From a virus, in UHGV virus genome UHGV-0117952: a stretch of 26,370 nt of DNA. One strand, written 5' to 3'. Shown here piece by piece: positions 4,496 to 25,690 of the stretch. The notes beneath the pieces are model-generated. The model searched no databases. It was given only the letters and a program-made list of their open reading frames with translations, and was not told where the DNA came from. Numbering within the stretch: the stretch's first letter is position 1; every line of letters starts with the position of its first letter. The position numbers and the translations under genes are program-made.

Positions 4496-6320
4496 ATTTG
4501 AGCTTAAGGCGTTGATCACCGGTGTCGACAGGCTTTCTCCCGCGCTGTCGAAAATGCAAAAGAAAATCCGGGGATTTAAACGCCAGGCGGAAGAAGCGTC
4601 ACAGGGTGGGCTGGCGCTTGGGGGCGGACTGGCAGCGGGTCTGACGCTTTCCCTGAAATCTTATGCCGATCAGGAAAACGCCGCCACCGGGCTGAAAGTC
4701 GCCATGATGGATGCGAACGGCGAGGTTGGAAAGAGCTTTCAGGACATCAATAAACTGGCTATTGGCCTGGGTAACCAGCTACCTGGTACAACGGCTGATT
4801 TCCAGAACATGATGCAGATGCTGGTGCGTCAGGGGATCCCGGCAGAAAACATTCTGGATGGTGTGGGTAAAGCGACAGCTTATCTTGCGGTACAACTGAA
4901 AAAAACACCGGAAGCGGCTGCTGAGTTTGCTGCAAAGATGCAGGATGCTACCGGAACGGCGTCAGAAGACATGATGGGGCTGTTCGACACTATCCAGAAG
5001 GCGTTTTATCTGGGCGTTGACGATACCAACATGTTGTCCTTCTTCACTAAAACCAGTTCTGTTCTGAAGATGGTGAACAAGGATGGTCTTCAGGCTGCAC
5101 AGAGCCTTGCCCCCATCAGCGTCATGATGGATCAGATGGGGATGAACGGGGAGTCGGCAGGTAATGCCCTGCGAAAAGTTATCCAGTCCGGATTAAGCGT
5201 TAAGAAAATCAGGGACGTTAATAAAGTCATGGCCCGCCAGAAACTCGGGGTACAGCTCGATTTTACTGACGGCAAAGGAAGTTTTGGCGGTCTTGATAAC
5301 ATGTTCAGGCAACTGGCAAAGCTGCGAAAACTGACCGACGTTAAGCGAACAGGTGTACTTAAGGCAATATTTGGTGATGATGCCGAAACCCTTCAGGTGG
5401 TCAATGCACTAATCGATAAAGGAAAGGATGGCTACGATCAGATCCAGCAGAAGATGAATAAACAGGCCAGCCTGAATAAACGTGTTCAGGCACAGCTTGG
5501 TACGCTGTCCAACCTGTGGGAGGCAATGACAGGGACCGCAACTAACGGCCTTGCGGCTATTGGCGGCGCATTTTCTGGTGACGCTAAAAATATCACACAA
5601 TGGCTGGGGGAGTTGGGGGAGAAATTCACGAAGTTTGCGGATGAAAATCCCCGGGTTATTCGCGGCGTCGTCGGGCTTGCTGCCGGTCTTGCGATTCTGA
5701 AACTGGGATTGATGGGCGTGGGCAGTGCCATCAGTATTGTCAGCAGGATTATGTCGATGACGCCGATTGGCATGATTGCGACGGCGATTGCTCTGGCTGC
5801 GGGATTAATTATCACTAACTGGGATGTTGTCGGACCTTATTTCAAGAAGCTCTGGGAAACCATTTGTCCTTATTTTGAGGCAGGTTGGGAACTTCTGAAG
5901 AAGGTTTTTGCCTGGTCGCCGCTGGGGATGGTGATCAATAACTGGGGACCGGTTGTTAAGTGGTTTCAGGATATGTGGGACAAGCTGAAGCCAATTATTG
6001 AGTGGTTTACCGACAGTTCCGGTGACACGGTCGATGCCATTAACTCTGCGCAGTGGGGCGCGGGTGCTTATGATGCTTATGGGACGGGAATACCGGCGCG
6101 GGGATACACACCTTATCCGGCGGTGGATCCGGCTCAGTCAAACAACGCCTCCGATGCCACAGGCTCGAATCCCTTCATGATTAACAAAGCTTCTGTGCCA
6201 AAAGTTGATGGTGAGATCAAGGTATCTTTTGTGAATTCGCCTCCGGGTATGCGGGTTATGGAAACGCGATCCAGCGGTTTTGATGTCAGCCATGATGTTG
6301 GCTATACGCGGTTCAGGTAG
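4488..6320 (+). CDS. tail tape measure protein (Mu-like module)
   Basis: 610 aa, Ala/Gly/Leu/Gln-rich helical composition with a hydrophobic GxxxG-like C-terminal segment; sits directly after the chaperone frameshift pair. Confidence 0.85.
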   Translation: MAEFELKALITGVDRLSPALSKMQKKIRGFKRQAEEASQGGLALGGGLAAGLTLSLKSYADQENAATGLKVAMMDANGEVGKSFQDINKLAIGLGNQLPGTTADFQNMMQMLVRQGIPAENILDGVGKATAYLAVQLKKTPEAAAEFAAKMQDATGTASEDMMGLFDTIQKAFYLGVDDTNMLSFFTKTSSVLKMVNKDGLQAAQSLAPISVMMDQMGMNGESAGNALRKVIQSGLSVKKIRDVNKVMARQKLGVQLDFTDGKGSFGGLDNMFRQLAKLRKLTDVKRTGVLKAIFGDDAETLQVVNALIDKGKDGYDQIQQKMNKQASLNKRVQAQLGTLSNLWEAMTGTATNGLAAIGGAFSGDAKNITQWLGELGEKFTKFADENPRVIRGVVGLAAGLAILKLGLMGVGSAISIVSRIMSMTPIGMIATAIALAAGLIITNWDVVGPYFKKLWETICPYFEAGWELLKKVFAWSPLGMVINNWGPVVKWFQDMWDKLKPIIEWFTDSSGDTVDAINSAQWGAGAYDAYGTGIPARGYTPYPAVDPAQSNNASDATGSNPFMINKASVPKVDGEIKVSFVNSPPGMRVMETRSSGFDVSHDVGYTRFR

Positions 6321-6419
6321 TGTACAAAATGATTAATGTGTTTTTGTCTGGCATAATTTGGGTTTTCAGCTTTAAGTAGTTAATATAATCATTCCTTACA
6401 AATGATTGAAGGGATGATT

Positions 6420-6914
6420 ATGCGTATCTTTGTTTTTTTTATATCTGCACTTTTATCTTTTAACTTGGCTGCGGAAGAGTGTAAGTTCAGCTTTAATGAG
6501 TCAGAATTAATCTCTTCTATAGGTATTGCACCAGTTAAGCAAGAGATAATAAAGGATGAAGGAATAACTAAGCGGCAATATGAATTCAGAAGAGAATTAT
6601 CTTCTGAAGAAATGCTTAGTGATGACGCTGATGAAAAATATGAGCCGCAGTTTTATATATCTGTTTATAATCCATCATGCCCACAAAAGGTTATTGTTTG
6701 GTTTTTCAAAGACAATAAAAACACAATGGATTTAAGTAATGAGGTCCTTGCTGGTAGAGCGTTCAAGTATTTAACTGGTGTTAATGAAAGTATTTTTGAA
6801 AATAAAATGAAAAAGTTTTTAAAGGTACAGTCATTTGAATCTTTTGATGAAAGGACAGATTCTAAATTTATAAAGAGTGGTGATATTTATTCCATTGATG
6901 TTCAACTCAGATAG
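6420..6914 (+). CDS. AT-rich moron: small secreted/periplasmic protein of unknown function (164 aa from ATG 6420)
   Basis: ORF track starts at 6402, but ATG 6420 has GAAGGG 6 nt upstream. N-terminus MRIFVFFISALLSFNLAA/EE is a Sec-type signal peptide. About 30-35% GC against about 57% in flanking tail genes. Own terminator downstream. Confidence 0.6.
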   Translation: MRIFVFFISALLSFNLAAEECKFSFNESELISSIGIAPVKQEIIKDEGITKRQYEFRRELSSEEMLSDDADEKYEPQFYISVYNPSCPQKVIVWFFKDNKNTMDLSNEVLAGRAFKYLTGVNESIFENKMKKFLKVQSFESFDERTDSKFIKSGDIYSIDVQLR

Positions 6915-6933
6915 TAATTAAAAATATTAGGTT

Positions 6934-6989
6934 CCCGCCACATCTTCTGCGATGTAAATAACTGACAAAGCAGATTTGGCGGGTTTTTT
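6934..6989 (+). terminator. rho-independent terminator after the moron
   Basis: CCCGCCA (6934-6940) pairs with TGGCGGG (6977-6983), imperfect extended stem, followed by TTTTTT (6984-6989). Confidence 0.5.
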
Positions 6990-7004
6990 GTATCCGGAGT
7001 TTAT

Positions 7005-8333
7005 ATGACGTGGAAAGACAGGCTTCAGGATGCGTCATTTCGCGGCGTACCGTTTAAGGTTGAAGAAGAAAGTGCGGGAACCGGTCGCCGTGTGGAAACA
7101 CACGAATATCCGAACCGCGACAAGCCCTATACCGAAGATCTGGGAAAAGTCACTTTCCGCCCGTCCATCACAGCTTATGTGGTGGGAGATGACTGCTTTG
7201 ACCAGCGCGATCGCCTGATTGACGCGCTGAATAAACCCGGTCCCGGCACGCTTGTCCACCCGACATACGGTGAGTTGAAAGTCTGTGTTGACGGGGAAGT
7301 TCGGGTCAGCACATCGAAGAGTGAAGGGCGTATTGTCCGCTTTGACCTGAAGTTTGTCGAAGCGGGAGATCTCTCTTACCCCACATCAGGCGTGGCGACG
7401 GCGCAGACGCTGATGTCATCCTGTTCTGCACTGGATGACTGCATCAGTGACAGCTTCAGCGGTTTCAGTATCGATGGCGTGGCAGATTTTGTGCAGAACG
7501 ACGTCGTCGGTAATGTCGGCACAATGCTTGGGTATGTTTCTGATGCGATGAAAGTGGTGGATTCTGCCGTATCGGATGCCGCCAGGCTGTTGCAGGGGGA
7601 TATCTCGGTACTTCTTCCGCCGCCATCGTCAGGCAAAAATTTCGTTGAGCAGGTGCAGAAAATGTGGCGTACCGGGAAACGCCTTTATGGTAACGCCAGC
7701 GACCTGGTCACCATGATCAAAACGCTTTCCGGTGTCAGCCTCGGCAGCGATCTGCAACCGCGCGGCGTCTGGAAAACGGACAGTAAAACCACCGCCACGG
7801 CGACGCAGCAGCGTAACGTGGTTGCCAGCACCCTTCGTACGACCGCAATCAGCGAAGCGGCGTATGCCGTCACCCGATTGCCTGCGCCAACAACTTCCGC
7901 GGTGATGCAGAATTCCGCAGTGGGGCAGGCAACAACACCCGCGCAGAGCACTGGCTGGCCTTCCGTCACGCATCCGGCACTGAACAATGCACCGGCGGTG
8001 AAAAACACGGTTGACCTGCCGACGTGGGAAGAACTGACTGACATTCGCGACACACTGAATACGGCAATTGATAAGGAGTTGTCCCGTACAACCAGTGATG
8101 CGCTGTTTCTGGTGCTGCGCCGGGTGAAAGCAGATCTGAATGCGGATATCAACACGCGCCTTGAACAGTCTGCACGGATCATTCAGCGCACGCCGGATGA
8201 GGTTTTACCCGCGCTGGTGCTGGCGGCGACCTGGTTTGATAACGCGGCGCGTGACGCGGACATTATCCGGCGTAATGCCATTACGCATCCCGGCTTTGTG
8301 CCGGTGATCCCTCTGAAGGTGCCAGTGCAATGA
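7005..8333 (+). CDS. Mu gpN-like DNA circularization / tail protein
   Basis: 442 aa ORF with GGAG Shine-Dalgarno; N-terminal region and position (tape measure, then N, then baseplate hub) as in Mu-type tails. Confidence 0.75.
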   Translation: MTWKDRLQDASFRGVPFKVEEESAGTGRRVETHEYPNRDKPYTEDLGKVTFRPSITAYVVGDDCFDQRDRLIDALNKPGPGTLVHPTYGELKVCVDGEVRVSTSKSEGRIVRFDLKFVEAGDLSYPTSGVATAQTLMSSCSALDDCISDSFSGFSIDGVADFVQNDVVGNVGTMLGYVSDAMKVVDSAVSDAARLLQGDISVLLPPPSSGKNFVEQVQKMWRTGKRLYGNASDLVTMIKTLSGVSLGSDLQPRGVWKTDSKTTATATQQRNVVASTLRTTAISEAAYAVTRLPAPTTSAVMQNSAVGQATTPAQSTGWPSVTHPALNNAPAVKNTVDLPTWEELTDIRDTLNTAIDKELSRTTSDALFLVLRRVKADLNADINTRLEQSARIIQRTPDEVLPALVLAATWFDNAARDADIIRRNAITHPGFVPVIPLKVPVQ

Positions 8334-12005: not shown

Positions 12006-14867
12006 ATGCATCGTATAGACACGAAAACCGCGCAGAAGGATAAGTTCGGCGCGGGTAAGAACGGTTTTACCCGTGGCAACCCCCAGACCGGTACGCCTGC
12101 CACCGATCTGGATGATGACTACTTTGACATGTTGCAGGAAGAGCTTTGCAGTGTTGTGGAAGCATCCGGTGCCAGCCTGGAGAAGGGGCGGCATGACCAG
12201 CTGCTTACCGCGCTTCGTTCGCTGCTGTTAAGCCGCAAGAATCCGTTTGGCGACATCAAATTGGATGGCACGGTGAAAACTGCTCTCGAAAATCTTGGTT
12301 TAAGAGAGACAGGAAGCAGCGGTGAAAAGATCCCACTATTAAGCACAGAAAATACGTGGAGCGGCAGGCAGAGTTTCAATGGTGGTGTTGCTGGTGAACT
12401 GGACGGTAACGCAGCTACCGCATCAAAGCTTAAGACGCCAGTCAGGATTGACGGTGTTGAGTTTGATGGATCGGCGGATATTTCTCTGCGCCGCGACATC
12501 ATTGATTACGACGCCCTCCAGCATAAAGTAATTCATGATATCGACTACGCCGGTATTTTTGACGGCGCGGATAATATGAGCCAGGGGTTCTGTATCTGTG
12601 ATACGCCGCAGGGAACTAGAATGTTTCTGCATCAGCCTGTATCGGGTGGCGTAAGGATTGTTGAAACGATATTTAACCCTGACGGAGAAAACGAAAACCC
12701 GACGGTCATTTCGTTTTCTCCCGTTTTCGCTGATATTGGTCACCAGAGTATCGGGGCTGTATGTGAAGACGATCGCGTGATGCTGTATACCCCGACCGCT
12801 GACGGCAAGGGTGTGAATATCATCAACTGGAATGGGGCTGACACCAGTCTGACAGATGTCACCCGTACGGAGATTTTCACCTCTGACTTTTTTACCGGGG
12901 ATGAAATTATAACGGTGGCATTGTCGGCAGACGGAAGCCTGTTGATTGTTCAGTCAAGTAATGAAGCAGTTCATCTTCATTACAACATGGATGATCGCCG
13001 CACAGTTTATGTTTTCGATCGCGCCTCTCTGACGTTTAAACACCGGATTTATCTGTCCACTCAGCCAATGGTGTCGCAGGCATTTCAGGGGATGGCCAGC
13101 GATGGTCATTATCTGTTTGCTTATTACGGTTATACAGGCGTATTTCTGACTCACCGCATTGTTGTATATAACCTGTCAACGGGCGAAGTTGTCAGACAGT
13201 TCAATGTGGATGGCGTTCGTGCCAGGTATGGCCGCCAGAAAATGCTGGGGAATGCAGAGCTGGGGTATCCCGTTTTGCAGGAAGCCGAAGGGCTGGCTCT
13301 CCATAACGGAAAACTGTATCTGCTCGATATGGATTTCTGGTGTCAGACAGCCGATGTGGTTTCTTTTGAGGGGGCATACTTTGCAGCACGTGCAACAAAT
13401 TTTTCTGGCCGTTCCCCGGTGAATCCATCTTACTGGACGCCTACAGCATATGGAACGGCGGCTGCAACGAAATATGATGCCACGAAGTCTTATACGTGTG
13501 GCGTGGCGACAAAACGCAGCAAAGCTGTGGTTTCCGTGGAGGCTTACGACGGCACAGGCTATCTGGTGGACTCCGGCGTGGCGTTTCCTGACAGCCATGC
13601 TAGCCTTTTTCTGAGTCCCAATGCTGTAAATATTGCCCTGTCACCCAATGAAGACTTCCAGGTGGCAGCCTATGAGCAGAATCTGCGCTCGCATCGCCCG
13701 TTATTTGAGGTCAGAAAGGAGGCTCCGGATACAGACACTTCTGCTGCTGTTTTTCGTTTGTACGGGGATGCGTTCCGAACCGGAGAATACACAGGCCGCT
13801 TCGTTCAGTGGAAACACCGACTGAACACCGTGCACGATTGTCTGGAAATACGCGCTGACGTGGATTTGTTGAGCGGTGGCGGGATTAACCTTTACTCAAT
13901 GAACGATACTCAGTCGGCGGGGCGCACAAGGCTTTATTGTACCGATGGCAGTGAGACCTGGTCTGTATTATTGAGTCCGGTCTCGCCGGCATTTCATCCC
14001 GACCAGGACAAGGCAATGAATCTGGGGTCATCGCCAAATCGCTGGAATGTGGCATACCTGCAGGGCGTGAATATTAAATCGGATGACGAAACCCAGAAGC
14101 GCATGGCCATCAGCACCACGCTGAAGGCGGGAGCTTTCCAGGTATCAACAGCCGGGAATCTGGGTATTTATGACGATTCTGCTGACGCTTATGTAATTGC
14201 AGCCCGTAGTGACGGCACTGCATTCATGCAGATGGATACAGATATTAACGGTGCATTCCGGCCATCGGTTAACAATACCAGCGACCTGGGTGCGCCCAAC
14301 AAAGCGTTCCGGAGCGTGTATCTCTGCAACTCGCCGACCGTTGTGTCGGATGCGACGTTAAAGGATACACCGCGCGATGCGACGGCAGCCGAAAACGCGG
14401 CATTTGCAGAAATAGCACGGCTTCCGGGCGTGTGGCGCTGGTTACAGAGAATTGAGGAGGAGGGCGAGGACGCGCGTCTGCACGCCGGGCCGACAGTCCA
14501 GGCCGCGATAGCGGTGATGGAGAAACACGGTCTGGACTGGCGGAAATACAGCGCATTTTGTCTGGATTCGTGGGAAGCGGAGGAGGCACAGTACGAAGAT
14601 ATACCGGAAGAGTATGAAGATATTCCGGTTCAGCCAGAGATTTATTCGGATGAAGGGGAGCTGTTGAGCGGGACAACCCGTGTGCTTACCCGACAGGCGG
14701 AAAGGGTTCTTGTTCGCCCTGCAACCGAAGCAGGAAGCCGTTATCGCTTCCGGAAAGAGGAGCTTCTCTGGTGGTGTCTACGTGCTGTTGTCAGCCAGGT
14801 GGATTTGTTAATGGAACGCTTTGTTGACTTAAATCGTCGTTTGATGAAGTTGGAGACTTCAGAATAA
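12006..14867 (+). CDS. tail fiber protein (953 aa) with candidate C-terminal S74-like intramolecular chaperone domain
   Basis: GGAG Shine-Dalgarno before ATG 12006. N-terminus resembles baseplate-attachment domains of myovirus fibers. Lower-GC central region. C-terminus contains VSDATLKD...[13 protein letters not shown], reminiscent of the SDxxLK...HxGxIAQ pattern of peptidase S74 chaperone domains. Confidence 0.8.
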
Positions 14868-15010
14868 ACAAGCCTTAATGAGTATCTGCTTAAAATAGTG
14901 TTATCTACAGATCAAACTTTAGTTGATACGAGTCACTGTCCTCCCCGTAACAACTGGAGTTAAAAGATGTGATGGCATATAAATATAACATCAAATAATT
15001 ATTTTTTTTT

Positions 15011-15040
15011 GCCCCTCACCCTTAATTTAGGGTGAGGGGC
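15011..15040. repeat. perfect 11-bp GC-rich inverted repeat (hairpin) with 8-nt spacer, flanked 5' by T9
   Basis: GCCCCTCACCC (15011-15021), TTAATTTA, GGGTGAGGGGC (15030-15040); T-run at 15002-15010 is upstream on the plus strand, so not a canonical intrinsic terminator in either orientation. Confidence 0.5.
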
Positions 15041-15079
15041 GTCAGATACAAAGTTAGGAGTATCTGTAGTTAAGTGTTT

Positions 15080-16169
15080 TTATATTTTTTCGCAAAAAGA
15101 AGAATAATCTCCACAGATTAAGCAACTGACAAGCTCTCTTTGTGCGGGATATATTTGGGACTCATTTACAAGCCCTGTATATGGTAAGAGTGATTTATGT
15201 ATCAAGTTAAAAACGTGAGACTTCTCATTAGTTGTTAAACTTTTTTTGGATAATATGGATGCCAAGTGCTCAACGCAAATAACCAGCCATGCATTAAACA
15301 TTTTTACTATTTCTGCTTCATTTTTATTGCTTGATAAGATATAAATCAAACCTGTTTGTAATACCAAGGCTCTTTGTTTAATGGAGAAAGATGTTTTAGA
15401 TAGATGTGGTTCTTCATGGCGATTCAGAGAGTAGTAGCCCTTTCTTGCCAGTATAGATATCGTATTAGCTACAGTTAGGCTCTGGCAAGAAAAAAGCATA
15501 TCCTCATAGACTGAAATTGATGGGTTAAATAAGATGTTGTTATTGATTAGCAACTCTCTTTTAAAGAACTTGAAGATTTTTAATGATCTAAAAAGATGGT
15601 TTTTTATAATATCTGCTTTATTCGTGTCTGCCTTAAATGGGCGTACAGGAACCCCTCTCCCTGTAGAGGAAACCTGCTTGAAATATACAATGTCACTATT
15701 GTTTTTATAAGCTATCTGAATACCATCGGACAGTAAGTCAGAGTGAATGGAATCATCAGAGTCTAAGAAAAACACATAGCGACCTTTTGCGGATTTTATT
15801 CCCTCATTTCGCGGCGCTGATGCATTCCCTGAACCAACTGCTCTACGGATAATACGATAATTTATTTCTCTCGAAATGTTATATTCAATGGCGGCAATGC
15901 TCCTGTCAGTGGAACAGTCATCAATGAAAATAACTTCAAAACAATTTTTATCTATAGTCTGATTGTTTAAAGATTTAATGCATTCGAGAATAAGGGTTTC
16001 TCGGTTGTGAACCGGAATAACAACTGAGACATCAAAGGGATAAATAGAATTAATTTCATTAATTACCGTTGTGATTTTTAGAAGAGAAGTATGCAGGGCT
16101 GTTGTTAAAACAGCAGAAGATGAAATGTTTTCTTTTTTAGTGTTGCCTTTTATAGTATAATAAGGGCAA

Positions 16170-16198
<29 letters not shown>
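15080..16198 (-). CDS. family-2 (GT-A fold) glycosyltransferase body; probable phase-variable gene
   Basis: 372 aa in this frame, with GT2 hallmarks VSVVIPVHNRE, FIDDCSTD, FFLDSDDS. About 30% GC. Frame has only a GTG start at 16198 with no usable Shine-Dalgarno and is open upstream through the repeat tract to a stop at 16265-16267. Confidence 0.8.
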
Positions 16199-16409
<211 letters not shown>

Positions 16410-16523
16410 TATGCAACCTCTAACGTTAATAATGTTTATGAATATTCAGAATGCTATCTCATAACATGAAGCATTATATCTGAACATTGTGACATGATTT
16501 AATGAAGTCATCAGCACATCATG

Positions 16524-16539
16524 CTGCAATGCATTGCAG
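16524..16539. promoter_or_regulatory. perfect 16-bp palindrome CTGCAATGCATTGCAG upstream of the glycosyltransferase locus (candidate operator)
   Basis: Read directly; lies about 115-130 bp upstream of the leader ATG (16409), and about 50 bp upstream of a TATAAT-like element on the minus strand (plus-strand 16474-16479). Confidence 0.35.
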
Positions 16540-16685
16540 TATAACTAACACGAGGGATTGTTTGCATGGTGATAGTTTTGTTGGTGATAAAATCAGCATA
16601 ATTAAATATGTTGGCGTACATTTTGAACATTTTTAAGCAAAGCAAATTATAAGTATAAAAATAGTTAATGTGAAGTTGTACTCAT

Positions 16686-16717
16686 GTAAAAAGCCCCGCA
16701 TTCTCTCGAAGGCGGGG
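16686..16717 (-). terminator. rho-independent terminator, minus-strand orientation
   Basis: Minus-strand RNA: CCCCGC, 12-nt loop, GCGGGG, then CUUUUU (plus-strand stem arms 16694-16699 / 16712-16717, A-run 16688-16692). Confidence 0.5.
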
Positions 16718-16810
16718 AAGATTTGAAAATTAATGGTACAAATTGACGATTTCATATTCTATTCTGTATTAGAATAAAAGTGAATATAATTATTTATTTT
16801 AGGTGATTTT

Positions 16811-16838
16811 TTAAAAAAAGCCCGTGGAAGCAACGGGC
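16811..16838 (-). terminator. rho-independent terminator, minus-strand orientation
   Basis: Minus-strand RNA: GCCCGU, 7-nt loop, ACGGGC, followed by U7 (plus-strand stem 16820-16825 / 16833-16838, A7 at 16813-16819). Confidence 0.55.
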
Positions 16839-17452
16839 ATAAAACGCGGAATTGATTAAGATCTGTATAATTTAATTTTCTGATTCTATCATGCATATCA
16901 TTCACAGTGAAGTTGGTAATTTAGTAAAACTAGTGATAATGCCACTCGGTTTGATAACAAGAGAAACCACAGCGTGGTTTCGTCGAACAGTTTATGAAGG
17001 ATATTCCCCCCAAATATACACTCGCTTTGTGCTGTAGCAGCGCAGATGCTGGTTGCTATTCTTACCGGGAACTGGGCTTACAAGGCAATAGTAGTGTGAC
17101 ATTCTTCATCGCGCACGTGCATATCCTGGCTGAAAATCGATGGATAGAAAATATCCGCAAAGGGAAGCGGAGCAGCATACCGTGGTGGGGGGCACATGTA
17201 TGGGGTGTTGGAAGTCTGATGGATTTCTTTGTACCAGACAGCTTGTATTTTCATCTTTTCTTTGTTTCTTTGCAGGTAATTATGAGTAGCAACAAATCCT
17301 GAATGGCTGGGTATACCGCAATAAATAGAGGCGGGCAAGTTGCCCACTTTTTCTTTATCTGTTGTTTCATCCACTGCCCAGCCAGGTCAAATAGCGTCTC
17401 ATGCTTCGCACAACAGAAAATAGTTGCACCCATTAACCACGGAGTTAAACGG

Positions 17453-18643
17453 ATGAGTGACTATCATCACGGCGTGCAGGTGCTGGAGATTAACGACGGC
17501 ACCCGCGTCATTTCCACCGTATCCACCGCCATTGTTGGCATGGTCTGCACGGCCAGCGATGCGGATGCGGAAACCTTCCCCCTCAATAAACCGGTGCTGA
17601 TCACCAATGTGCAGAGCGCGATTGCAAAGGCCGGTAAAAAAGGCACGCTGGCGGCATCGTTGCAGGCCATCGCTGACCAGTCAAAACCGGTCACCGTTGT
17701 CGTGCGCGTGGAAGACGGCACCGGCGACGACGAAGAAACGAAACTCGCGCAGACCGTTTCCAATATCATCGGCACCACTGACGAAAACGGTCAGTACACC
17801 GGACTGAAAGCCCTGCTGGCGGCGGAGTCGGTAACCGGTGTTAAACCGCGTATTCTCGGTGTGCCGGGACTGGATACCAAAGAGGTGGCTGTTGCACTGG
17901 CATCCGTCTGTCAGAAGCTGCGCGCTTTCGGGTATATCAGCGCATGGGGCTGTAAAACCATTTCCGAGGTGAAAGCCTACCGCCAGAATTTCAGCCAGCG
18001 TGAGCTGATGGTCATCTGGCCGGATTTCCTCGCATGGGATACGGTCACCAGTACCACCGCCACCGCGTATGCCACCGCCCGTGCGCTGGGTCTGCGCGCT
18101 AAAATCGACCAGGAGCAGGGCTGGCATAAAACGCTGTCCAACGTCGGGGTAAACGGTGTTACCGGCATCAGCGCCTCTGTATTCTGGGATTTGCAGGAGT
18201 CCGGCACCGATGCTGACCTGCTTAACGAGTCAGGCGTCACTACGCTGATTCGCCGCGACGGTTTCCGCTTCTGGGGTAACCGTACCTGCTCTGATGACCC
18301 ACTGTTTCTCTTTGAAAACTACACCCGCACCGCGCAGGTGCTGGCCGACACGATGGCTGAGGCGCACATGTGGGCGGTGGACAAGCCCATCACCGCAACG
18401 CTGATTCGCGATATCGTTGACGGCATCAATGCCAAATTCCGTGAGCTGAAAACAAACGGCTATATCGTGGATGGCTCATGCTGGTTCAGCGAAGAATCCA
18501 ACGATGCGGAAACCCTCAAGGCCGGAAAACTGTATATCGACTACGACTATACACCGGTGCCTCCTCTCGAAAACCTGACCCTGCGCCAGCGTATTACCGA
18601 TAAATACCTGGCAAATCTGGTCACCTCGGTTAACAGCAATTAA
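17453..18643 (+). CDS. FI: P2-type tail sheath protein FI
   Basis: Track ORF starts at 17303, but ATG 17453 (MSDYHHGVQVLEIND...) has GGAG at 17441-17444 and matches the recalled P2 FI N-terminus; 396 aa. Confidence 0.9.
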   Translation: MSDYHHGVQVLEINDGTRVISTVSTAIVGMVCTASDADAETFPLNKPVLITNVQSAIAKAGKKGTLAASLQAIADQSKPVTVVVRVEDGTGDDEETKLAQTVSNIIGTTDENGQYTGLKALLAAESVTGVKPRILGVPGLDTKEVAVALASVCQKLRAFGYISAWGCKTISEVKAYRQNFSQRELMVIWPDFLAWDTVTSTTATAYATARALGLRAKIDQEQGWHKTLSNVGVNGVTGISASVFWDLQESGTDADLLNESGVTTLIRRDGFRFWGNRTCSDDPLFLFENYTRTAQVLADTMAEAHMWAVDKPITATLIRDIVDGINAKFRELKTNGYIVDGSCWFSEESNDAETLKAGKLYIDYDYTPVPPLENLTLRQRITDKYLANLVTSVNSN

Positions 18644-24328: not shown

Positions 24329-25690
24329 TCACTTACCGTGTGGGTTACGCGTGGTTTCCCCGGAGAAATTACGCATCAGCAGCGCGTAATTTAGCTCAAG
24401 ATCCTGCGGGACCGGGAGCCACACAGTATAACCATCGCCTGGTGCGACCGGCATCGCTTCACCTTTGGCGTTTTCCATGTGCTCAAGGGTAAAGTTAATG
24501 TTGCCTTGCGGCGTCATCAGCTCAAGGCTGTCGCCAACGGAGAATTTATTTTTCACCGCTACCGCTGCGAGGTCCCCCTTGCGCTCACCGGTAAACTCAC
24601 CAACAAACTGCTGGCGGTCAGAAACTGAATAACCGTATTCGTAGTTCTGATAATCGTCGTGAGTATGACGACGCAGGAAACCTTCGGTATAGCCACGATG
24701 CGCCAGACCTTCCAGAGTTTCCAGCAGGCTGGTATCGAACGGTTTGCCCGCAGCGGCATCATCGATAGCTTTACGATAAACCTGTGCGGTGCGTGCGCAA
24801 TAGTAGAAAGATTTAGTACGGCCTTCGATTTTCAGCGAATGCACGCCCATTTTGGTCAGGCGTTCTACATGGGCGATGGCGCGCAGATCTTTCGAGTTCA
24901 TGATGTAAGTGCCGTGCTCATCTTCAAACGCGGTCATATACTCGCCCGGACGCTGGGCTTCTTCGATCATAAACACTTTGTCGGTTGGCGCGCCGATACC
25001 TAGCGTCGGCTCAACATTTTGCACCGGAATCGGCTCGTACTTGTGTACGATGTTGCCAACGTCATCTTCTTTCCCTTCCTGGACGTTGTACTCCCAGCGG
25101 CAGGCGTTGGTGCAGGTACCCTGGTTCGGATCGCGCTTGTTGATATAGCCAGAGAGCAGGCAGCGACCGGAGTAGGCCATGCACAGCGCACCGTGAACGA
25201 AGATCTCGATCTCCATATCCGGCACCTGATTGCGGATCTCTTCAATCTCTTCCAGCGACAGCTCGCGAGAGAGGATCACGCGGGTCAGGCCCATTTGCTG
25301 CCAGAATTTCACCGTCGCCCAGTTTACGGCGTTAGCCTGCACCGAGAGGTGGATCGGCATTTCAGGGAAGTGCTCACGCACCAGCATAATCAGCCCTGGA
25401 TCGGACATAATCAGCGCATCCGGCCCCATTTCCACCACCGGTTTCAGGTCACGGATAAAGGTTTTCAGCTTGGCGTTGTGTGGTGCAATGTTGACCACGA
25501 CATAAAACTTTTTCCCCAGCGCGTGGGCTTCATTGATGCCGAGCTGAAGATTTTCGTGGTTAAATTCGTTGTTGCGCACACGCAGGGAGTAACGCGGCTG
25601 GCCCGCATAAACAGCATCTGCGCCATAAGCGAAAGCGTAACGCATATTTTTCAGCGTTCCCGCCGGGGAAAGGAGTTCCGGTTTAAACAT
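24329..25690 (-). CDS. yegQ: peptidase U32-family protein YegQ (tRNA ho5U synthesis, TrhP)
   Basis: 453 aa; sequence recognised from memory as enterobacterial YegQ (MFKPELLSPAGTLKNMRYAFAYGADAVYAGQPRY...), including the Cys-rich block; GAGAG Shine-Dalgarno upstream. Confidence 0.85.
   Translation of the reverse strand: MFKPELLSPAGTLKNMRYAFAYGADAVYAGQPRYSLRVRNNEFNHENLQLGINEAHALGKKFYVVVNIAPHNAKLKTFIRDLKPVVEMGPDALIMSDPGLIMLVREHFPEMPIHLSVQANAVNWATVKFWQQMGLTRVILSRELSLEEIEEIRNQVPDMEIEIFVHGALCMAYSGRCLLSGYINKRDPNQGTCTNACRWEYNVQEGKEDDVGNIVHKYEPIPVQNVEPTLGIGAPTDKVFMIEEAQRPGEYMTAFEDEHGTYIMNSKDLRAIAHVERLTKMGVHSLKIEGRTKSFYYCARTAQVYRKAIDDAAAGKPFDTSLLETLEGLAHRGYTEGFLRRHTHDDYQNYEYGYSVSDRQQFVGEFTGERKGDLAAVAVKNKFSVGDSLELMTPQGNINFTLEHMENAKGEAMPVAPGDGYTVWLPVPQDLELNYALLMRNFSGETTRNPHGK

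Follow-up and report, generated by a model that had tools for sequence, protein, structure and literature searches.

The gene neuO, carried by prophage CUS-3 in Escherichia coli K1, is known as a mobile contingency locus. In gtr operons, phase variation acts through Dam and OxyR in the promoter, and among enterobacterial small RNA genes, OmrA and OmrB form a tandemly duplicated pair. Phage P2 carries its non-essential cargo genes in slots such as Z/fun, between genes G and FI, and old/tin. A crystal-structure paper deals with the neuO system (PMC3046976). Here we analyse positions 16410-17452 of the virus genome UHGV-0117952 (26,370 nt; this whole stretch is called the window below), a segment that separates a family-2 glycosyltransferase (GT) gene on the minus strand from the tail-sheath gene FI of a P2-like prophage. 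An earlier sequence-only reading had taken it for one non-coding, AT-rich junction of about 1 kb. Very probably, it is instead put together from three pieces of unrelated origin: the non-coding 5′ region, itself conserved, that belongs to a mobile GT cassette with the GT on the minus strand (16410-16913, delimited by homology maps), a dead phrog_1443 gene on the plus strand (16994-17302), and a stub of gene G followed by the FI upstream region of phage P2 (17293-17452). The AT-richness holds for the left part, with a GC content of 0.32 over 16400-17000, but not for the right part, with 0.40-0.46 over 16850-17450. The small open reading frames within 16410-16913 are without codon periodicity, whereas 16994-17302 holds a recognizable pseudogene (E 2.7e-12 to phrog_1443).

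Conserved terminators upstream of the glycosyltransferase gene

The 5′ region could be compared over four lineages or so, drawn from the window type, copies in kps capsule loci, and the contigs L022 (P22-like) and L023 (kps type), the last two of which came from pattern scans of viral and metagenome contigs. Scanning genome contigs with the GT protein added one extra kps copy, and a looser pattern scan for further lineages gave chance matches only. The two minus-strand terminators that had been proposed from the letters alone are borne out by folding, by a terminator scan, and by pairing that is kept in four lineages. The first, T1 (16688-16717, minus strand), has a CCCCGC/GCGGGG stem (16694-16699 and 16712-16717) followed by five U's at 16688-16692; inside it, a 3-bp UUC/GAA stem carries a GAGA loop of the GNRA type, and the folding energy is -15 kcal/mol. 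The second, T2 (16813-16838, minus strand), has a GCCCGU/ACGGGC stem (16820-16825 and 16833-16838), a 7-nt loop, and a run of seven U's at 16813-16819, with a folding energy of -9.9 kcal/mol. Both show the terminator form, i.e., a GC-rich stem-loop and then a U tract, on the minus strand only. Terminator-like sites are also enriched in the surrounding region, where eight were found over 15900-17700 against 1.3 +/- 1.2 in shuffled sequences.

T1 is conserved in all lineages. One G-C pair has become G-U in the kps copies and L023, and one C-G pair has become U-G in L023; these wobble changes fit a minus-strand RNA only, since the plus strand would carry A-C and C-A mismatches. The loop varies from GAGA to GAAA between lineages. 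In T2, the closing U-A pair is replaced by C-G in three kps-type sequences, which is a full compensatory change, and the remaining five pairs are invariant. Over both stems, 98.1% of the cells in relatives are paired, against 32-59% when the partners are slid, and one pair is changed on both sides. RNAalifold recovers both hairpins unaided, and a scan of the relatives re-finds T2 in the kps contig L008 and in L022, and T1 in L022. By this comparison, T1 and T2 can be regarded as established, at the level of prediction, as conserved and strand-specific intrinsic terminators upstream of the putative GT promoters. The role suggested for them earlier, namely insulation of the GT promoter or promoters from leftward read-through, is reasonable because they are minus-strand terminators that lie upstream of these sites.

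The DNA around the terminators is itself conserved. Between lineages, 16410-16913 keeps 69-77% identity with few indels, while four-fold degenerate sites of the GT gene are only 35-43% identical, i.e., saturated (codon positions 1 and 2 together are 66-76% identical). Because this identity persists over saturated synonymous sites, the alignments indicate that 16410-16913 is under selection. Compared with L022, the upstream DNA is 77% identical and the GT gene 59%. The 0.5 kb upstream is thus more conserved than the enzyme it serves, which argues for functional non-coding DNA that is worth studying at the RNA level.

A small protein in the AT-rich part, encoded either by a 36-aa open reading frame (ORF) at 16621-16511 or by an ORF running through T1 to 16633, was also considered. 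When six-frame ORFs were compared across the lineages and mismatches counted per codon position, several of them, including the 36-aa ORF, were open in frame in all lineages despite the AT-richness, and a 40-aa ORF (16755-16633) has a hydrophobic C-terminus. The mismatches are nevertheless spread evenly over the codon positions (17/16/18 in the 36-aa ORF, 12/9/11 and 9/8/12 in others), and the amino acid identity of about 40% is what chance predicts from a nucleotide identity of about 68%; on these two grounds the small ORFs were rejected as genes. Moreover, no Shine-Dalgarno sequence precedes them, one crosses both a terminator and a promoter, and the ORFs that were searched have no Pfam or PHROG match. 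A small protein is therefore very improbable.

Promoter-like sites, paired units and their possible roles

Four promoter-like sites lie on the minus strand of the 5′ region. The rightmost one, P3 (16911-16883), combines the -35 hexamer TTCACT (16911-16906), a 17-nt spacer, and the extended -10 element TGATAGAAT (16891-16883); hexamers, spacing and the TG of the extended -10 are kept in all lineages, and homology between the window and the kps copies ends at 16913, 2 nt beyond this -35. Promoter P2 (16784-16756) has the -35 TTCACT (16784-16779), a 17-nt spacer, and the -10 TAGAAT (16761-16756), which varies between lineages as TAAAAT, TGAAAT or TAAGAT. It is called independently in L022, and the kps form TAAGAT falls below the scan threshold. 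P1 (16674-16646), distal to the GT gene, reads TTCACA-17-TATAAT with 11/12 matches. Its -10 is invariant, no terminator stands between it and the GT gene, and its counterparts are called independently as TTCGCA-17-TATAAT in L008 and TTCCCA-17-TATAAT in L022. The GT-proximal site P0 (16502-16473; -35 TTAAAT at 16502-16497, 18-nt spacer, -10 TATAAT at 16478-16473) would yield a 5′ untranslated region (UTR) of about 57 nt ahead of the GT ATG at 16409. Its -35 matches at only 3/6 positions and the promoter scan does not call it; read from the sequences, its block CATTAAAT.ATGT ... GATATAA(T/C) has the same spacing in all four lineages. P3 and P1 are re-found by the scan in both L008 and L022, and the position and spacing of all four sites are constant across lineages. 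The spacer of about 140 nt between P1 and P0 is less conserved, and the Shine-Dalgarno sequence and ATG (16409) of the GT gene are conserved. A 16-nt perfect palindrome, CTGCAATGCATTGCAG, was also noticed on the minus strand at 16525-16540, in the leader between P1 and P0; its copy in sublineage L014 pairs through two U-G wobbles on the minus strand only, and it is not conserved in the kps copies or in L022.

The explanation that we favour reads these elements from right to left on the minus strand. Two similar modules of about 125 bp, P3 to T2 and then promoter P2 to T1, would each consist of a sigma-70-type promoter and, about 60 nt on, an intrinsic terminator, and the tandem GT promoters P1 and P0 would follow after both modules. 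Each module would give an RNA of about 65 nt with an unstructured 5′ end and a terminator hairpin. T1 and T2 would also halt leftward transcription before the GT promoters, and GT expression would then be set only by P1/P0 and by a frame switch in the (GCTG)n tract of the gene. Taken whole, i.e., as the mosaic together with short transcripts from two promoter-terminator modules, this explanation is evenly poised between right and wrong.

In unit A (P3 to T2; 16812-16911, minus strand), the predicted RNA of about 65 nt would run from about 16876 to 16812. It carries the invariant block UUCCGCGUUUUAUG (16851-16838) just 5′ of the T2 hairpin, with UUUUAU directly before the hairpin and U7 after it. 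In unit B (promoter P2 to T1; 16686-16784, minus strand), an RNA of similar length would run from about 16750 to 16686, and a 19-nt block in its 5′ part, CAATTTGTACCATTAATTT (16745-16727), is nearly invariant and unpaired. Both predicted RNAs fold only at the terminator hairpin, leaving the 5′ part unstructured. From the predicted start sites and transcripts, we infer that each module makes its RNA from its own promoter. The two units are equal in length (about 125 bp) and align with each other at z 3.57, a score reached by 1/500 shuffles, which suggests that they arose by tandem duplication. By sequence, hallmarks of trans-acting (Hfq-type) small RNAs are present, namely a conserved single-stranded seed in unit B, and a U-rich stretch and a long terminator U tail in unit A; the tail of unit B is shorter.

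Several observations weigh against this explanation. The possibility of small RNAs had been raised before; a conserved promoter-like site before each terminator speaks for it, but a covariance-model scan of 15900-17700 with Rfam 15 (E <= 1), a check that had been advised, gave no match. The best hits were at chance level (20-24 bits against gathering thresholds of 50-90, E 0.36-0.59), and none of them falls on T1 or T2. Promoter matches are no commoner than in shuffled sequences (4 vs 4.7 in the window, 6 vs 4.3 in L008, 6 vs 3.4 in L022), so that the case for promoters is one of positional conservation alone. T1, and hence the tail of unit B, ends in no more than five U's, and L014 has a weaker T1 stem. 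With about four independent lineages, the covariation support is thin, and 15/500 shuffles reach the observed score. Duplex energies of the predicted RNAs with the GT leader and start region, the neighbouring GT being the only target compared, are no better than in shuffles (z -1.2 to +1.0). Furthermore, strain 2D matches the window exactly as far as 16765 and departs from it thereafter, and a recent exchange of upstream DNA, more than of the GT body, could be partly behind the high conservation.

Several of these points would be expected if T1 and T2 only blocked read-through to the GT promoters, with P3 and promoter P2 being non-functional look-alikes in AT-rich DNA and no discrete small RNAs being made. 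The source of the read-through would be, for example, int/early transcription running leftward in the ancestral P22-like context or, at kps loci, transcription of region 2, and minus-strand genes do lie to the right of the cassette in both contexts. The chance density of promoter matches in AT-rich DNA and the lack of a target among the GT leader sequences compared agree with such a role. However, it leaves unexplained why the hexamers, the 17-nt spacing and the extended -10 TG of P3 and promoter P2 are kept despite saturated synonymous sites, and it gives no reason for the near invariance of two blocks, one of 19 nt (16727-16745) and one of 14 nt (16838-16851). In the P2-like setting, moreover, no leftward transcription comes from the right, where the FI operon is on the plus strand, yet both elements are intact. 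We consider insulation as the sole function somewhat unlikely.

The order promoter-terminator-promoter-terminator-gene on one strand would also suit a long leader, in which the GT is transcribed mainly from P3, with T2 and T1 acting as regulated attenuators within about 470 nt, read through, e.g., with an antitermination factor. In kps loci, upstream transcription is RfaH-dependent, and this would suppress such terminators. However, no ops/JUMPStart element (GGCGGTAGnnT, <=1 mismatch) is found in 16410-17452, no antiterminator fold is predicted, since only the terminator hairpins fold, and P1 (11/12) and P0 lie downstream of both terminators, which makes read-through unneeded. An attenuated leader is thus quite improbable. 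An exact ops core does occur on the minus strand inside FI (17974-17984), some 1 kb "upstream" of the cassette; chance probably explains it, as the window holds 9 matches at <=1 mismatch against 4.8 expected.

Within the explanation by two transcribed modules, a further step would be that units A and B are two paralogous, undescribed small RNA genes that act in trans on host or phage transcripts and travel with a phase-variable GT. This proposal is tentative, and at present we hold it to be unlikely. If it is true, the cassette carries its own riboregulators in addition to an enzyme, with targets such as surface-polysaccharide or receptor genes, and both units shuttle with the GT between P2-like phages, P22-like phages and kps loci as one mobile cassette.

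The mobile cassette, the dead gene and the P2 backbone

The GT gene (15080-16409, minus strand; Pfam PF00535, E 3e-28) is split in the window by a (GCTG)13 tract at 16204-16255, which reads as (SQPA)n, and is thus in the OFF phase. In otherwise near-identical copies, n is 5, 6, 7, 11, 13, 13, 18, 19, 21, 35 or 45, and one compound tract reads 28+6+6+33. Even within the E. coli B lineage, n is 7 in REL606, 21 in ATCC 11303, 35 in strain "B" and 45 in the drug-selected derivative B-DolR. Annotations show a single ORF in three copies whose n is a multiple of 3 (18, 21, 45) and a split gene in four whose n is not (7, 11, 13, 35). GT homologues in kps loci and P22-like prophages are without the tract. 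From this variation, the (GCTG)n GT looks like a genuine contingency locus in E. coli. Literature searches on the GT, the repeat, the P2-like prophage of E. coli B, and transcription start site and small RNA maps of BL21 returned nothing on this locus. In strain CUVM3, the GT is interrupted by an IS3-family element.

The GT gene and its upstream DNA (15222-16913) recur in kps capsule loci and in P22-like prophages. The kps carriers, at about 68% identity, are strains AF16 and AST215, Escherichia sp. E1V33 and two metagenome contigs (cassette copies: L008 2668-4906; L009 2513-4752; L011; L020; L023). In these loci, the cassette has kpsS on one side and, on the other, ORFs whose annotations are cytidylyltransferase/SDR enzyme and CDP-glycerol glycerophosphotransferase. 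Loci of the AF16/AST215 type and L023 have a remnant of phrog_1443 next to the cassette. In the AF16/AST215 type there is, in addition, a short ORF with the RefSeq annotation of a tail-fibre-assembly fragment, the similarity of which to G of phage P2 is weak (E 0.21). In the P22-like prophages (L022 and strain CUVM3), the order is tailspike, GT, AT-rich region, intact phrog_1443 and intS. One P22-like prophage with equal gene order has a tailspike that is 29% identical in the C-terminal region. These homologies establish, at the sequence level, that the GT cassette is mobile between P2-like prophages, P22-like prophages and kps group-2 capsule loci. Because the phrog_1443 remnant and the tail-fibre-assembly fragment sit beside the kps copy, we read the latter as a phage-derived cassette recruited into a capsule gene cluster. 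By linking temperate-phage cargo to kps loci, the cassette gives direct evidence that capsule clusters take up surface-modifying modules carried by phages.

To the right of the cassette, the ORF at 16994-17302 (plus strand) matches PHROG family phrog_1443 over residues 31-90 with the E-value given above, and an intact relative matches at E 9e-54. In a distant DNA search, 17019-17270 showed 70-75% nucleotide identity to genes for "hypothetical proteins" of about 99 aa in 52 phage and 25 plasmid records. The phrog_1443 gene comes directly after the tail-fibre or tailspike gene in lambdoid, P22-like and Uetakevirus genomes. The family (about 97 aa, 657 protein clusters, in enterobacteria and beyond) has no Pfam domain and no assigned function; two or three hydrophobic segments, seen by eye, suggest that the product may be a small membrane protein. 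In the window, the N-terminal homologous residues NIHSLCAVAAQMLVAILTGNWAYKAIVV are in another frame, which is entered through one surplus C in the poly-C run 17006-17011 and left again through the loss of 1 nt near 17099. The poly-G run 17187-17192 has 6 residues in the window, 5 in REL606 and 4 in strain 2D; strain 2D and L014 bear further, different frameshifts, and in strain PCP07014, ISEc12 is inserted at 17120-17124. L022 has an intact copy at the same position. As near-identical copies bear independent and different lesions, 16994-17302 is, on comparison, a pseudogene under relaxed selection. Both homopolymer runs vary among near-identical genomes (G6/G5/G4; C6/C5/CCCT), and this could be either real slippage or assembly error. 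In RefSeq, no feature is annotated over the AT-rich part, and the right-hand part with the pseudogene has three differing, mutually inconsistent "hypothetical protein" calls, depending on the genome; this annotation needs correcting. A minus-strand ORF called by PGAP at 17078-17374 has no Pfam or PHROG match, runs antisense to the phrog_1443 remnant, and was rejected.

The perfect 8-bp stem with a 3-nt loop reported earlier at 16963-16981 was confirmed (-10.7 kcal/mol; z -3.8 on the plus and -2.8 on the minus strand). It ends 13 nt before the phrog_1443 start codon. In L022, the 5′ arm GAAATTAT pairs with GTGGTTTC on the plus strand through three U-G pairs, and the minus strand would have three C-A mismatches; on this ground the hairpin was rejected as a third minus-strand terminator. 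It is not conserved in the kps lineages. Judged from this one lineage, it is probably a 5′-UTR stem-loop of the now-dead plus-strand phrog_1443 gene.

The backbone of phage P2 resumes at 17293. The last 32 nt of gene G (17293-17324, plus strand) are 87.5% identical to the 3′ end of G in phage P2 and encode ...NPEWLGIPQ*, where G of phage P2 ends ...NPEWPEMPQ*; nothing else of G is left in the prophage. The FI upstream region (17329-17452, plus strand) follows, with 96% identity to phage P2 over 17329-17600. It contains a hairpin at 17331-17347 that, by scan and folding, reads as a terminator on both strands, and the FI start codon is at 17445. In phage P2, this region carries the Ogr-dependent late promoter PF. 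An exact TGT-N12-ACA, a motif that describes the Ogr site near -55 perhaps only approximately, does not occur in 17329-17452. To the left of the GT, the tail-fibre protein (953 aa, 12006-14867) has a C-terminal Peptidase_S74 intramolecular-chaperone domain at residues 781-843. A module of tail fibre, GT and phrog_1443 has, by this gene order, taken the place of the 3′ portion of H and of almost the whole of G, and the 3′ part of the fibre, the GT cassette and the phrog_1443 gene (the 14868-17292 region) look like one imported module. Loss of G would be possible because the new fibre carries its own chaperone domain. Between the convergent tail-fibre and GT genes, a near-perfect 15+15-nt palindrome, GCCCCTCACCCTTAA / TTTAGGGTGAGGGGC (15011-15040), is probably a bidirectional terminator.

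The earlier suggestion that the segment holds a prophage boundary or att remnant between two modules fits only in the loose sense that the resumption of the P2 backbone at 17293 is a recombination joint, and that the cassette adjoins int in P22-like phages. Structural and tail genes of phage P2 flank the segment on both sides, and the host gene yegQ, which adjoins the prophage at 24329-25690, flanks it in REL606 just past ogrK, about 7 kb to the right of the segment. A comparison of the segment with the rest of the window gave no shared direct repeat above 12 nt (E > 1), the left prophage end lying outside the window, and no integrase or tRNA is near the segment in the window. A prophage end here is barely credible; by its gene content, the segment is a mosaic recombination joint inside a prophage.

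The E. coli B strains REL606 and ATCC 11303, together with some 20 further E. coli genomes, hold copies with 99.9-100% identity to 16410-17452. At least 80% of the segment is present in only 28 of 5426 complete genomes, in every case on the chromosome. Matches of any part occur in 963 E. coli genomes, most of them owing to 17329-17452. The prophage relatives are decaying differently (L001, i.e., REL606, 6246-7025; L010 4301-6603; L003 1-397; L027 4519-5747). In REL606, the tail-tube gene is fused to gene D by a deletion, and in DETEC-P881, ISEc12 lies beside a truncated tail-fibre gene. By itself, the segment shows ordinary mosaic anatomy, made of terminators, promoters, a dead gene and phage backbone. 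The novelty is modest and would lie in two candidate small RNA genes beside a hypervariable (GCTG)n GT, and in the cassette that appears to link phages to capsule loci.

Comparison with described systems

The closest likeness is to neuO, in that a prophage-borne enzyme that modifies surface polysaccharide sits beside tail genes, is switched ON and OFF by a variable repeat in its 5′ coding part, and has a link to group-2 capsules. The enzyme and repeat differ: the product of neuO is an O-acetyltransferase, its repeat is a heptanucleotide and its carrier a P22-like phage, whereas the gene described here encodes a GT2 enzyme with the tetranucleotide (GCTG)n. Unlike neuO, the GT2 cassette is found on both P2-like and P22-like prophages and inside kps loci. 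We know of no pair of promoter-terminator modules described upstream of neuO. The gtr operons of the P22/Sf6 type, which serve O-antigen conversion, are similar in that the P22-like relative uses the slot between tailspike and int, with the cargo AT-rich and oriented opposite to the tail gene, and the GT has weak PHROG similarity to GtrB-like proteins. In contrast to gtrABC, the cassette encodes just one GT2 enzyme of soluble type; it lacks a conserved GATC cluster, and switching would occur by repeat slippage.

The cargo slots of phage P2 are comparable in position. As with that cargo, the cassette comes immediately before the FI late operon, and its bounds are the G stop codon and the conserved hairpin with the FI upstream region. 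Unlike in phage P2, the Z/fun slot is empty, only 17325-17328 lying between the G stop and the FI upstream region, and the cargo instead occupies the place of the 3′ portion of H and almost the whole of G. Finally, units A and B would resemble OmrA and OmrB as two adjacent, similar candidate short RNAs with putative promoters of their own, predicted intrinsic terminators with a U-rich tract, and a conserved 5′ or central block. Unlike OmrA and OmrB, their mutual similarity is weak (z 3.57), and neither has a match in Rfam.

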